Positions 9,491 to 54,602 of a DNA stretch of 64,000 nt are shown in pieces. How positions within the stretch are numbered: the stretch's first letter is position 1; each line of letters opens with the position of its first letter. Location of the stretch: NCBI GenBank assembly GCA_964016885.1, contig OZ024754.1, positions 37,138,001 to 37,202,000 on the forward strand, in the 5' to 3' direction. The notes beneath the pieces were generated by a model that saw only the letters and a list, made by a program, of their open reading frames with translations, was not told the DNA's origin and did no database searches. The position numbers were made by a program, and so were the translations under genes. This DNA comes from Eledone cirrhosa. Taxonomy: Eukaryota.

Positions 9491-10160
9491 GTAAAAGTTC
9501 TATTTAAATTGTTGGGATACAACAAGCAAATATTTTTATAACTGATATAAAGCACTCAACAAGTAATTGGAGTAAAAATACGATATTAACAAATGGAAAC
9601 TATATTTATAAAACCATATTTATTTCATTATACATATTTCAAGGACACCAAGTTAAATTATGGTGTGCTTTCATCAGATAAAATATAATATAGAGCAGTT
9701 TTATAAATAAATATTGACATACCCTTAAAGAATGCAACCATTATTGTTAGAAGCTCCCGGATAGTGGGGTTATAAATTTATTTATACTATTATGTAAATT
9801 AGAATAGATTTAAAATAGATTTAAATAAGCCGTTGGGTTACGGAGAAAAAGAGAGAGAGAAAGAGAAGAACAAGAGAGAGAAAAAAGAGAGAGATATAAA
9901 AGAGAAAAGAGAGCAAGCCTTTAAGAAGAAAATAAGTAAAAAGAGAGAAATAGAAAGAAATAGTATAAATAAATGTATAACCCCACTACCCGGGAGCTTC
10001 CAACAGAAACGGTCGCATTCTTTAAGGGTATGTCAATATTTATTTATAAAACTGCTCTATATTATATTTTATCTGATGAGAGCACGCCATAATTTAACTT
10101 GGAATATGTATAATGAAATAAATATGGTTTTATAAATATAGTTTCCATTTGTTAATATCG
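9491..10160. mobile_element. HHR family A fold-back element (PLE pseudo-LTR-like), (TA)n-flanked
   Basis: ~9580-9790 is an inverted copy of 9961-10160, with a purine-rich spacer. Confidence 0.8.
9621..9685 (-). ncRNA. Type I hammerhead ribozyme motif, family A
   Basis: tattttat-CTGATGA-aagcacacca[..]tggtgtcctt-GAAA-tatgta-TA-atgaaata. Confidence 0.85.
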
Positions 10161-10363
10161 TATATATATATATATATATATATATATATATATATATATA
10201 TATATATATATATATATATATATATATATATGCAGAGGTTATATTTAATTTGTTGGGATTCAACAAGCTTGAAATTTTTTAGAACTGATATAAAGCACGA
10301 AGCTACAACCGTTAAGGTTGTCTTTTTTCAGGGTATATTTATTTATAAAACTAATCTGTATTG

Positions 10364-10429
10364 TATTTTATCTGATGAAAGCGCACCATAATTTGCCTTG
10401 GTGGCCCTTGAAATATGTATAATAAAATA
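10364..10429 (+). ncRNA. Type I hammerhead ribozyme motif, family A (element 10232-10470)
   Basis: tattttat-CTGATGA-aagcgcacca..tggtggccctt-GAAA-tatgta-TA-ataaaata; perfect 8-bp stem I. Confidence 0.85.
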
Positions 10430-10490
10430 AATATGGTTTTATAAATATAGTTTCCATTTGTTAATATATTGTATAGAGTATATATATATA

Positions 10491-10720
10491 TATTTATTAA
10501 AATAACAGATTAAAGTTTAAGCAAAGAATCGCTGCTTTCACCCTTAACGGGATCTTCTGAGTTTCAGAAGATCCCGTTAAGGGTGAAAGCAGCGATTCTT
10601 TGCTTAAACTTTAATCTGTTATTTTAATAAATATTTGCTCTACGGTTCTTATATATTTGATATATATTTATCCTTATCGAGCCCTCTTTGGATTTTAGTC
10701 TTCAAATTTATTATTATTAC
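10491..10720. mobile_element. HHR family B fold-back element
   Basis: Near-perfect palindrome 10491-10633 plus an ~85-nt tail; second copy inverted at 25108-25308. Confidence 0.8.
10560..10610 (+). ncRNA. Hammerhead-like motif with variant core CAGAAGA, family B
   Basis: agttt-CAGAAGA-tcccgttaagggt-GAAA-gca[..]tgc-TT-aaact. Confidence 0.65.
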
Positions 10721-10842
10721 TATATATATATATATATATATATATATATATTGTATGTATATGTTAAGTATTTCCATAGAAAAGGTAGAGGAAAGAAGAG
10801 TGCTCTATGTATAGTACAGAGCTATTTAATTATGTAATAAAT

Positions 10843-11030
10843 AACTGTTTCTACTTTAGGCACAAGGCCAGCAATTACCCAGTGCATTACTGGTACTTTA
10901 TTTTATCGACCCCGTAAGGATGAAAGGCAAAGTCAACCTCGGCGGGATTTGAACTCAGATCGTAAAGGGACGTAACTATGCTGGAAAGCATGGCGTCCGA
11001 CCCTCTACCGATACTGCTAATCCACCGCCC
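10843..11030 (-). mobile_element. tRNA-derived SINE, family 1 (near full length)
   Basis: Head gggcggtggattagcagtatcggtagag, B box, conserved body and tail. Confidence 0.92.
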
Positions 11031-11037
11031 TATATGT

Positions 11038-11210
11038 AATAAATAACACAATATAATTATTCCATTACCCAAGGTTTTACGAAGTTAGACGATTCTAACA
11101 GAAAAGTCTGATATCGTTCATCAGAAGGAAGCGATATCAGACGTTCCTGTTAGAATCGTCTAACTTCGTGAAACCTTGGGTAATGGAATAATTATATTGT
11201 GTTGTTTATT
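11038..11210. mobile_element. HHR family C fold-back element
   Basis: Imperfect palindrome; minus arm 11060-11130 has CTGATGA..AAAA-ccttggg-TA, plus arm has GAAA-ccttggg-TA-atggaa. Confidence 0.75.
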
Positions 11211-50891: not shown

Positions 50892-52364
50892 CTGAGACAC
50901 ACACAGACACCCACACACACACACACACACACACACACACACAGACATACACACAGACACACACACACACATATATATATATATAGAGAGAGAAAGACAG
51001 AGGGTGAGAGAAATCCAGTTAATTATCTGCAAGATAACGATGTAATAAAACACACGCGAATCATACACACGCACGCACACGCACACACACACACACACAC
51101 ACACACACACACACACACACATATATGTAACCCAATCTATATTGATATACTGATAGAGTTATAACAACCCTGTTTTTGAAGCGATATCTACAAACTCTAT
51201 ATTCCTTATACTTCAATTAAATACCATTTTCTAACATGGTTTAATATTCGATCTAACCTCACAGACTTTCTTCTGAAAGGCCTAGCACTCGACTAACCCC
51301 ACTCTCTGGGCATCGAAAACACTACCCGAAAAGGAGAACTGGTCAACATCATCGGATGCTTCCGAAGCCGCAGGTTTTTTTTTTTCTTTTTTTCAGAGTT
51401 TCCCTCTCTTAGAAATGTGTTGTGACAACAACTGGGGGCCTTTCAAAGTACTATTTGAATGGCCGTTGTTGACTCTGCTGAGTTGAGTTACTCCGCTCTT
51501 TGCCAGGTTTTGTATTTCATCCCGCAGGTTGTCCAAATATCACCCTCCTCACCAAGCAAGCTTGGTGGGGTTGCCGGTTTATATATACAGAGAGAGAGAG
51601 AGAGAGAGAGAGAGAGAGAGAGAGAGGTAGAGAGAGAGAGAGGGGTAGAGAGAGAGGTAGAGAGAGAGAGAGGGGGGTAGAGAGAGAGAGAGAGAGAGAG
51701 AGGTAGAGGTAGAGATAGAGGTAGAGAGAGAGAGAGAGAGGTAGAGGTAGAGATAGAGGTAGGGAGAGACAGAGGTAGAGAGAGAGAGAGAGAGGTAGAG
51801 AGAGAGAGAGAGAGAGAGAGAGAGAGAGAGAGAGAGAGAGAGAGAGAGAGAGAGAGAGAGAGAGAGAAAGAATAAGAATTGCAGCTTTGTGTAAAACTTT
51901 ATTTCATATTACAATTGTTTCCATATCGATCAGCTCGGGTTTAATCAGGCGATCGGATCCCGACTCTTAATCGAAACTACAGTACTTCAGATGATTAGAA
52001 AGAATTATAAGAGTGTTAGTTTAGCAGAGTTGTTAGAACGTTAGACAAATGTTAATCTCCATCACAAGAAGAAAGAATTTATATACGAATGAATGACATA
52101 CTAGAAACATCAGTTAAATATCCACCAAATTACATCTTATCGTCTTAAAATAGGAAGTATAGACTACATAATATGGATGGTGACGACTGAAACGTCGTAT
52201 TGAAATAATTTGATCTCAAGATAAAAGAATTTCCGTTATGAATATCACATCTTTTTGACATAGTATATCTTGGACTTCAGCTTCCAAAGAGGTCTTCAAC
52301 TGATTTAACATTGTACTGTGTAATTTGAATGATATTTGGTTGCTATTTTAAAGGATCGATCGAC

Positions 52365-52552
52365 TTTCGTCAAATCGAACCGAGGAAACAATGTTTTCGT
52401 CGGTCTTTCCAGTTGCTAATACTATCTATCGGTCGCAACTCCAGGTAGAAGGAGCAACGTGAAATAAAGTGTCTTGCTCAAGGGCATAACGCATCGAACT
52501 CACAATCTCAAGATGGTGAATCCAACTCTCTAACCACTCAGCCACACGCCTC
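52365..52552 (-). mobile_element. SINE family 2
   Basis: Head ggaggcgtgtggctgagtggttagag, B-box remnant gagttcga, CORE-like body. Confidence 0.85.
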
Positions 52553-52770
52553 CATTGGTTGCTATATCTAGCAACATAACAACCACATAACATCACCTTG
52601 GCCTAAAAATGGGTCAAACTCTCAAAACCACAACAGAGAAATTAGTGTTATCAAGTTTGAAATACAAGAATGAAAACTAGATTTAAGTAAAGCAAGCAAA
52701 AGAAAACAGAAGTAAACACATTTACTTTATATTTCATAGGTTTCGAGATTAGGACACGACCCCCCCCCCC

Positions 52771-53388
52771 TATATATATATAAATATACATACATATATA
52801 TATATGCATATACATATATATATATATATATGTATATATATATGCATATATACATATATATATGTATATATATGCATATATACATATATATGTATATATA
52901 TATATATACATATATATATATATATGTATATATATATGCATATATACATATATATATGTATATATATGCATATATACATATATATGTATATATATATATG
53001 TATATATATATATGTATATGTATATATATGTATATTTATATGTATATATATATGCATATATATATGTATATATATATGTATATTCATATGTATATATATA
53101 TATATATGTGTATATTTATATGTATATATATATATATGTATATATATATGCATATATGTGCATATATATATATGCATATAATATATATATGCATATATAT
53201 ATATATACGAGGTCTGTCTGAAAAGTATATATATATATATATATACATACACACACACATATATATATATATGTATATATATATATGCATATATATATAT
53301 ATATATATATACATACATATATATATATATATACACGTATATATAAACGTATATACATATATATTATATATATATATATATATATATA
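52771..53388. repeat. Degenerate (TA)n tract
   Basis: Direct inspection. Confidence 0.95.
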
Positions 53389-53788
53389 AAATAGAAAAAA
53401 GAGTGAAGAAAGAACTAGTCAGCAACAGGAAAATATTCTTTAGTCAATTGAAAATAAATCATGTCGGAAAAGACCGCCATAGATTTAAAAATATGAATGA
53501 TAAATGTCGACAATGTGACCAGCTTCCATAAAGAATAAAATCTATGAAATTAACATCTCATATATTATATTCTTTACTTTTTACTTGCTACAGTAGTAAA
53601 TACGTTTTAAGCATATTAATATCGTACAAATATTATGGAAAGTCTGCTTTCATCGCAGATTTATATATATATAAGTTATTCCGGGTTGAATCGGAGGTAA
53701 CCACAGTAAGTAAGGTACTCAATACATAGCAGAGTATAACAGTTTTAATATAGAAGAGCTTCTACAGGACTAGAACAGTTTCATTCGT

Positions 53789-53837
53789 GCTTCCTGATGA
53801 TTTCTCACGAATGAAACAGTTCTAGTCCTGTAGACGC
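53789..53837 (+). ncRNA. Type I hammerhead motif, family E (fold-back element 53670-53853)
   Basis: gcttc-CTGATGA-tttctcacgaat-GAAA-cag[..]ctg-TA-gacgc (opposite arm has gaagc). Confidence 0.8.
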
Positions 53838-54536
53838 TCTTCTATATTAAAACTATATATATATATAAGATTTATAGCACAATGAGAATGTTTTCGTGTG
53901 AATTGGGAGTTTGTTTATAATTATGATATAAACATATGAATTTTTAAAAACTAGACATAAGATCATTACTTCTCACACATTATAGATACATGTCTCATTC
54001 ATGAATACTGGTACTTACACTATAATGCCTGTTTTATACGAACTAATATTTTCTACGGATAAAACATAGCGTTTTTAAATTCTGCATCGTTTATGTCTGG
54101 TTATGTTTCATTTTCTCTTTTTCATTTTCTCTTTTTTCTCTCTATATAACGGCTATTTTCTCTCTTAACTACATACATCTCTCTTTACATTAATACTAGA
54201 GCTAAATAAATAAATAAATAAATAAATAAATGTATCAACCGATACTCAACTTTCTAATTTCTCTATCTATCTCTATCTATCTCTTTCTTTTTTCCTCTCT
54301 CTATATATATTTCTCTCTGTTTCTTTACATGAAGTTCTTCTCTTTATCTATCTTTCTATATCCCTCTATTTAGTCACATACATTTCTTCTTTTTCTTCGT
54401 TTCTCTTTCTTTCTCTCTTTATCTCTTTCTCTTTTTACAACTGTCCACAATATTTTTTACTGCCAAATCAACCTCACAAATGCAAGGTGATTGAAAGGTA
54501 TGTCGTATCTATTTATTTATAAGACTGTTTATATTG

Positions 54537-54602
54537 TATTTTGTCTGAAGATGGCATAACATATTGTTAATATGATATCCCTGAAATATATATAACGAAA
54601 TA
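54537..54602 (+). ncRNA. Type I hammerhead motif, family A (element 54470-54732)
   Basis: tattttgt-CTGAAGA-..-GAAA-tatata-TA-acgaaata. Confidence 0.85.

Follow-up and report, generated by a model that had tools for sequence, protein, structure and literature searches.

The 64,000-nt stretch of Eledone cirrhosa DNA analysed here (GenBank assembly GCA_964016885.1, contig OZ024754.1, positions 37,138,001 to 37,202,000 of the forward strand), hereafter called the window, carried hammerhead ribozyme motifs of several families, among them family A, which resembled the 3' end of a Hydra-clade Penelope-like retroelement. A CUGANGA scan of the window revealed nine family A motifs, named below by the position of C3 of CUGANGA, and a tenth copy (10073, plus strand) was found without the 3' arm of stem II and part of GAAA (Table 1). 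In hammerhead numbering, N7 is the free position of the core. The motifs were of type I and had the order stem I, CUGANGA, a stem II of 10 positions, GAAA, the palindrome AUAURUAU, a predicted cut after AUA, and stem I. Three helices surrounded the core, the ends joining in stem I, and helix III comprised 2 bp in the monomer and 8 bp in the predicted dimer. Stem I was prolonged by about 12 bp past an internal loop (19898–19912 with 19998–20012, and equivalents), and two inherited A-to-G changes on the 5' side of this extension preserved G-U pairs. Interpretation of the GTAYGT that precedes stem I as a splice donor was unsupported; some subfamilies had GTTATG, GTCATG or GCTATG.

The nine motifs represented only seven insertions, because 19850/19938 and 33579/33718 were each the two arms of one inverted insertion; the partner of 9677 within its inverted insertion was the broken copy 10073. 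The assignment of 21166 and 22870 to a single insertion was rejected, since their subfamilies differed and 22870 had its own inverted tail. A preliminary description of this DNA had reported nine intact copies, and all nine motifs were present, with its positions corresponding to the motif bounds (8 nt before C3 in plus-strand copies, and the low end in the minus-strand copies 9621 and 21110); the number of insertions was smaller and the broken copy had to be added. Every sequence quoted in it was found in the window. N7 did take all four bases, both in the nine window motifs and in 73 insertions chosen by their flanks (U50, A10, G8, C5), and the stem I pair 2.2-1.2 alternated among A-U, G-U and G-C as described. 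Stem II paired in both of the quoted forms, but with a C.C mismatch at the fourth position. The core invariance among the nine motifs was circular, because "intact" had been defined by the core, and the core could not be singled out from the window alone because the flanks were nearly as invariant (60 of 136 alignment columns were invariant).

A descriptor scan gave 326 matches in 1.07 Mb of fetched DNA, mostly loci chosen for carrying the motif, versus 1 match in the same DNA reversed. The Rfam search of the window returned nothing that reached the gathering score, and copy 54545 had no match at E ≤ 10; at E ≤ 10 in 9400–34000, the best 150 of 408 matches contained only (TA)n-driven noise from microRNA models. 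The long stem II and minimal helix III of family A probably fall outside the Rfam models.

Table 1. Hammerhead motifs and the associated element end in the window (cuts are predicted).
Positions	Strand	Feature	C3	N7	Remarks
9621..9685	-	family A hammerhead, type I	9677	U	helix III AUAUGUAU; predicted cut after 9629; long-ended arm of inverted insertion 9490-10161
10065..10120	+	broken family A hammerhead	10073		stem II 3' arm and part of GAAA deleted; short-ended arm of insertion 9490-10161
10364..10429	+	family A hammerhead	10372	U	predicted cut after 10421; short-ended arm; inverted tail fragment ~10232-10298
19793..19858	-	family A hammerhead	19850	A	helix III AUAUAUAU; long-ended arm of inverted insertion 19662-20036
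19930..19995	+	family A hammerhead	19938	A	short-ended arm of insertion 19662-20036; arms 99% complementary over 120 nt
21110..21174	-	family A hammerhead	21166	C	long-ended copy reaching (TA)n at ~20978
22862..22927	+	family A hammerhead	22870	C	short-ended arm; inverted tail fragment ~22707-22793
33522..33587	-	family A hammerhead	33579	G	long-ended arm of inverted insertion 33392-33817
33710..33775	+	family A hammerhead	33718	G	short-ended arm of insertion 33392-33817; arms 97% complementary over 169 nt
54537..54602	+	family A hammerhead	54545	A	stem I G-C variant; youngest subfamily
53854..54733	+	Penelope-like element 3' end, 5'-truncated			97.9% identity over 799 nt to L172; long end at (TA)n
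31552..31661	both	family B inverted hammerhead pair	31598(-), 31615(+)		4-bp helix III; predicted cut after GUA
56686..56757	-	family C hammerhead			3-bp helix III, UUU loop; predicted cut after GUA
55422..55492	-	family D hammerhead			different stem II; palindromic helix III AUGCGCAU; related lineage, 21,476 anchor matches

Selection on the motif was investigated with the first 100 matches of a 29-nt flank on contig C1, the core being ignored in the choice. Of these copies, 88 extended past stem I; the 12 truncated or rearranged copies were left out and neighbours of one cluster were merged, giving 73 insertions. All 12 core bases were the majority base in this sample. Alleles seen at least three times were absent from all 12 core columns but present in 27 of the 42 columns from loops and flanks (p = 1.0e-4) and, for everything outside the core, in 52 of 104 columns (p = 5e-4). 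On the tree, parsimony placed no change of a shared allele in the 12 core columns, 7 changes at N7 and 19 in the 10 columns of loop II. Loop or flank columns had about 2–3 such changes apiece, and 12 columns changing at the flank rate would have been expected to show about 25. These counts rest on allele sharing and on numbers of parsimony changes, and they support the retention of the fold and of the putative catalytic core across several source lineages.

Changes private to one insertion showed a different distribution, with 8 in 765 core cells versus 34 in 6,242 cells elsewhere (p = 0.13). In the young lineage, 8,598 copies genome-wide fitted a fixed pattern; the release of six core bases added 138 copies and the release of six stem bases of the same composition added 146 (p = 0.68). 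The 5' core was intact in 98.4% of the young-lineage copies, versus 98.3% for a composition-matched stem segment. By these counts, decay after insertion is neutral, and the young lineage contains no sizeable amplified group whose 5' core is altered. Because inherited variants spare the core while inserted copies lose it at the stem rate, selection acts on the source elements and not on the genomic copies.

A structural alignment of 30 hand-picked representatives of families A, D and E had 95.4% of its cells paired, versus 38–53% in slid controls. Changes on both sides were seen in 11 of 21 pairs overall and in 8 of 9 stem II pairs, and none of 500 shuffles, which ignore relatedness, reached the observed pairing and covariation. 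RNAalifold recovered stems I and II unaided. With II.1 and the C.C position excluded, alternative stem pair types were canonical in 11 of 16 inherited cases versus 5 of 18 seen once (p = 0.037). The C.C mismatch at stem II position 4 was retained in 66 of 70 insertions (L073, L094 and others) while its neighbours covaried; a tertiary or protein contact is possible at this position. Palindromic helix III sequences were found in unrelated families (AUAURUAU, AUGCGCAU, ACUAGU, ACGCGU and ACUAAUUAGU). The calculated energy of the helix III self-duplex was -2.2 to -10.5 kcal/mol (a gain of 2.2–3.2 for family A and 10.5 for family D), and that of the monomer hairpin was +4.7 to +6.0 kcal/mol. Cleavage therefore likely needs a dimer, because helix III costs energy in the monomer while the self-duplex gains it.

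Comparison of 54491–54730 with the genome showed that 40 of 40 scored candidates were 100% identical over 240 nt. Two such matches lay 4,157 bp apart on one strand and enclosed a broken reverse transcriptase (RT)-endonuclease frame. The window segment 53854–54651 was 97.9% identical to the 3' untranslated region and pseudo-long terminal repeat (pseudo-LTR) of the full element at locus L172, and no coding part lay in the window; the family A copies are therefore read as 3' ends of this element, truncated or inverted, that lie in (TA)n. A protein search of the genome gave 95 scored matches at 94–100%, many of them within open frames of 745 codons. RT-endonuclease frames of 737–740 aa, each with a hammerhead motif downstream, were present in all eight fetched candidates, which had been chosen for long open frames, and four of the eight had a second direct motif copy just upstream of the frame. 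Tandem motifs on both sides of the frame were found at L031, L167, L174, L175, L177 and L178, and the pseudo-LTRs of tandem elements lay about 3.7–3.9 kb apart. At L031 (2780–5448), a full tandem element, the RT part of the frame was disrupted by an inserted repeat and an inverted duplication.

The protein contained the motifs RWR, SDKT, CNCRDRSKC (a CxCx5C linker), FNYVGST, CDLC (CxxC) and CCRH or CCKH (CxH); the GIY-YIG endonuclease assignment rests on FNYVGST only. An AlphaFold model built from 89 aligned sequences had a predicted local distance difference test score (pLDDT) of 92.5, and its best PDB match was telomerase TERT (E 8e-10); the single-sequence model (pLDDT 32) was of no use. 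PDB sequence searches with the element protein were blank or gave noise, and Pfam searches with 9 relatives gave sub-threshold noise only. The newer Pfam families PF26215 and PF28514 match many relatives; the Pfam copy used here misses the L172 protein (2340–4553). In total, 164 protein relatives were found at E ≤ 1e-10, with about 29–44% identity among the 120 listed, and the named ones came from Argonauta hians. The family A subfamilies had their own frames (78%, 86%, 86% and 92–100% identical), and the frames beside family D motifs were about 42–56% identical.

Features of Penelope-like elements were thus found in a single frame with a telomerase-related RT and an endonuclease, in pseudo-LTRs from partial tandems, in inverted 5'-truncated copies and in a tail at one end. 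Those of the Hydra clade comprised DKT, RW[K/R] (RWR here), CxCx5C, CxxC, CxH and (TA)n insertion, the likeness being judged by eye. On these sequence features, the family A element is a new family of an already described Hydra-clade element with an already described ribozyme type. Automatic annotation may place its copies among unknown repeats.

The copies terminated in (TA)n. Among the 100 flank-chosen copies, 59 had short ends, 36 had long ends and 5 were unclear. Neighbours within 6 kb comprised 17 divergent, 2 convergent and 4 same-strand pairs, and all 17 divergent pairs combined a long with a short arm (P = 2.7e-6 if independent). In the window, each of the five short arms had an inverted long partner or a tail fragment of one.

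Abundance was estimated in the 3.0-Gb genome. A 29-nt flank had 41,012 exact matches and the family D anchor had 21,476, each with 0 matches for the reversed control. A strict hammerhead pattern, which includes no check of stem II pairing, revealed at least 77,153 motifs (reversed control 0). With a less strict descriptor that also checked pairing, 39 evenly spaced 10-kb stretches yielded 19 motifs, which extrapolates to about 146,000 motifs of all families per genome (95% range 88,000–228,000). The motifs belonged to many families, several with unrelated palindromic helix III and others with a short true hairpin. In four sequence runs made up of contigs, the depth of pseudo-LTR fragments was about 100-fold above that of the frame, depth tracked copy number, and neither joints nor ends appeared. 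A comparable hammerhead count for any cephalopod was not found in the open-access literature searched. In the accessible text of a 2026 octopus repeat annotation, the words "ribozyme" and "Hydra" do not occur (PMC13282606).

Other repeats were also present in the window, which was rich in microsatellites. Family B formed foldback repeats at 31545–31753, 53659–53876 and 62159–62304; judged by sequence, it is likely another Penelope-like family and could cleave as a monomer. Hammerhead-bearing foldbacks of family C, with a short hairpin helix III, lay at 11032–11216 and 56668–56820, and the 11124 copy had GUAA in place of GAAA. Different hammerhead families were nested side by side in (TA)n tracts, where they formed clusters (L002, L022, L026, L157 and L195). 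A near-perfect hairpin of 145 nt (98%) occupied 10490–10634 within another (TA)n-flanked repeat, with a partial copy at 25109–25396. A dispersed repeat of about 190 nt, which we take to resemble a tRNA-derived short interspersed element, had more than 10 copies, including 6494–6679, 10819–11030, 12200–12519, 15923–16068, 16939–17307, 19220–19399, 27753–27953 and 38882–39078. Tandem arrays were located at 347–3126 (23 bp), 5322–6059 (75 bp), 22956–23937 (105 bp), 39902–41455 (123 bp), 44103–45033 (55 bp) and 45301–46922 (23 bp). In the 347–3126 array CUGAGGA adjoins GAAA, but it was rejected as a hammerhead, having no stem II and no descriptor match.

We consider it quite probable that family A is the 3' end of a Hydra-clade Penelope-like element with a type I hammerhead, that its predicted self-cleavage is likely required for the spread of the source elements, and that the inserted copies decay neutrally. 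The preliminary description, in which the parent element, identified here as a Penelope-like retroelement, was absent, had concluded that ribozyme activity was maintained across several active subfamilies. The observation behind that conclusion was real, and the conclusion is partly supported in a narrower form that concerns the source elements: the fold and core were kept in several source lineages with their own frames, whereas the nine copies were insufficient and catalysis is predicted from sequence. Core positions mutating as fast as the flanks had been named as evidence to the contrary; such mutation was found among inserted copies, and inherited variation avoids the core.

Several observations weigh against this reading. 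Tree-aware analysis of covariation gave 1–3 well-supported independent pairs per base pair, too few for significance. The II.8 pair was lost in the youngest lineage (A.A, G.A or C.A in 16 of 71 insertions), the first stem II pair was often non-canonical (A-U 60, U.U 5, A.C 3 and other 2 in 70 insertions), and single-strand folds failed to yield a full hammerhead. Intact frames were found only with N7 = A or G, and Pfam gave no family for the frame or its fragments. Strong conservation extended to stem I (0.44 shared changes per column), which means that constraint is on the RNA fold as a whole and not on the core alone. Core mutants of the anole element PAc (Poseidon) showed unchanged insertion in vitro and gave no RNA ends at the cut site (PMC11167929). 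Because the core of that element is dispensable for insertion in vitro, the motif may have a non-catalytic role.

A mechanism can be proposed for the insertions. Two motifs would fold together as a dimer through the 8-nt palindromic helix III, the likely partners being the two pseudo-LTRs about 3.7–3.9 kb apart in a tandem element, and a cut after AUA would release a unit-length RNA. The element protein would nick both strands of the (TA)n target, and reverse transcription would be primed at two fixed RNA sites about 90–100 nt apart, one per strand; we infer this two-start priming by analogy, because in the anole element both strands are cut and two start sites are used. Two truncated copies would then join head to head, giving the long-plus-short inverted insertions. 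The fragments in the window would be dead products, in which the antisense arm would sequester the motif. On a more speculative extension, which we offer tentatively and think more likely wrong than right, cleavage would serve as a checkpoint of completeness: a transcript would be cleaved only if it brought together two pseudo-LTRs about 3.8 kb apart, which would restrict propagation to full tandem sources; both nicked strands would be primed from the two fixed sites, in a strictly asymmetric manner, by an RT-endonuclease acting as a dimer, and the genome would form a natural mutational scan of the in vivo need for the ribozyme. If this were true, the 77,000 to about 146,000 motifs, in many independent families, would show a need for the ribozyme of Penelope-type elements in vivo despite its dispensability in vitro.

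Among other explanations, the one that survives best is that the element protein relies on the fold as a binding or folding signal, which accounts for its retention, with cleavage being incidental. The near-equal conservation of stem I with its extension and of the core is consistent with such a signal, as are the insertion of the anole core mutants in vitro, the need of cleavage there for the protein (PMC11167929) and the poor cleavage of metazoan minimal motifs in vitro (PMC4209133). We judge it unlikely, since the catalytic rules are closely followed, every one of the 12 core bases being fixed while N7, which lies within the core, varies more than any other column, and since the same core occurs in families with unrelated stems. 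It is less probable still that the ribozyme travels as a passenger, favoured because it lets small non-autonomous retrozyme-like RNAs spread and of no help to the autonomous element. Pseudo-LTR fragments do far exceed frames, hammerheads as parasites of these elements were considered by Craig et al. (PMC8557442), and a 2026 preprint derives retrozymes from these elements (bioRxiv 10.64898/2026.07.22.740005); however, the motif has a fixed place in frame-bearing elements of lineages down to about 50% protein identity, and the short copies, instead of being tandem monomers, are ends that have been 5'-truncated or inverted. That the core invariance is a by-product of recent amplification and of the choice of intact copies, with no selection, would hold for the nine window copies alone and finds some agreement in the many identical copies of the youngest subfamily, but it is barely credible for the flank-chosen copies, in which half of the non-core columns had inherited variants and the core had none of the shared changes expected at the flank rate. 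Maintenance of inserted ribozymes by the host, to which the high proportion of intact 5' cores in the young lineage might point, can be given almost no weight in bulk, with a few loci possible, since the matched stem segment was intact as often and private core changes were no rarer than elsewhere.

The preferred reading, in which source elements of a Hydra-clade family depend on predicted self-cleavage, was compared with known systems. The Hydra clade, its hammerheads, its (TA)n targeting and its tail at one end were described by Craig et al. 2021, whose supplement has a row for Hydra-1_Obim of Octopus bimaculoides with a different hammerhead; in that work the function of hammerheads in Penelope-like elements is called unclear and a parasite is allowed (PMC8557442). 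The element described here is like the Hydra clade, Hydra-1_Obim included, in its single frame, C-terminal endonuclease, RW[K/R], DKT, CxCx5C, CxxC and CxH, and likewise in targeting (TA)n, in carrying a hammerhead close to its 3' end, in having copies that are inverted and 5'-truncated, and in bearing a tail at one end only. It differs in unit size (about 3.7–3.9 kb, versus generally under 3 kb), in having RWR instead of RWK, in its tail (about 90–100 nt, versus 30–40 bp) and in helix III (an 8-nt palindrome, versus 4 bp in Hydra-1_Obim, to whose helix III the family C relatives in the fetched loci are nearer). The present element has full pseudo-LTRs and many intact frames, and its copies number in the tens of thousands, whereas Hydra-1_Obim is listed with no pseudo-LTR (PMC8557442).

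Minimal, dimer-dependent type I hammerheads of metazoan Penelope-like elements were described by Cervera and de la Pena 2014 (PMC4209133) and by Lunse et al. 2017 (as cited in PMC6765202). Family A shares with them the location in pseudo-LTRs, the short palindromic helix III, the long helix II, the many families with compensatory changes and the opposite-strand pairs 100–700 bp apart. The G10.1-C11.1 pair and the extra base after A9, recurrent but not obligatory features of those motifs, were not found in family A, where A-U prevails in place of G10.1-C11.1; its C.C mismatch, 8-bp stem I and long extension are likewise unlike them, and the strict count exceeds the about 2,000–9,000 motifs per genome reported (PMC4209133).

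The axolotl genome is far larger than the one searched here, and the motif count found here is on the axolotl scale in a far smaller genome. The axolotl has 126,247 motifs in non-LTR retrozymes (PMC7229834), which family A resembles in being of type I, in a weak palindromic helix III working as a dimer (predicted here) and in the order of copy number. Retrozymes are non-coding tandem monomers that make circular RNAs, with the motif in each monomer, whereas family A consists of dispersed truncated or inverted ends of an autonomous element and the tandem pairs examined flank a coding frame (PMC7229834; bioRxiv 10.64898/2026.07.22.740005).

Inherited variants leave the core untouched, while changes after insertion strike it at the neutral rate; this contrast is direct evidence from evolution for the importance of an intact core to the source element. 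The present analysis adds scale, the separation of source-level selection from neutral decay, and a strict long-plus-short rule; substrates for testing the ribozyme are at hand in the young family, which has intact frames, all four N7 states in nature and naturally occurring stem variants. As for PAc of Anolis, its two reverse transcription starts define the tail, both target strands are cut and extended, and the protein is a predicted dimer (Frangieh et al. 2024, PMC11167929), in likeness to the scheme proposed here. PAc belongs to a different clade, its motif overlaps the start of the frame, and it showed no strand difference in the start site in vitro, whereas the genomic pairs described here were strictly long plus short (PMC11167929).

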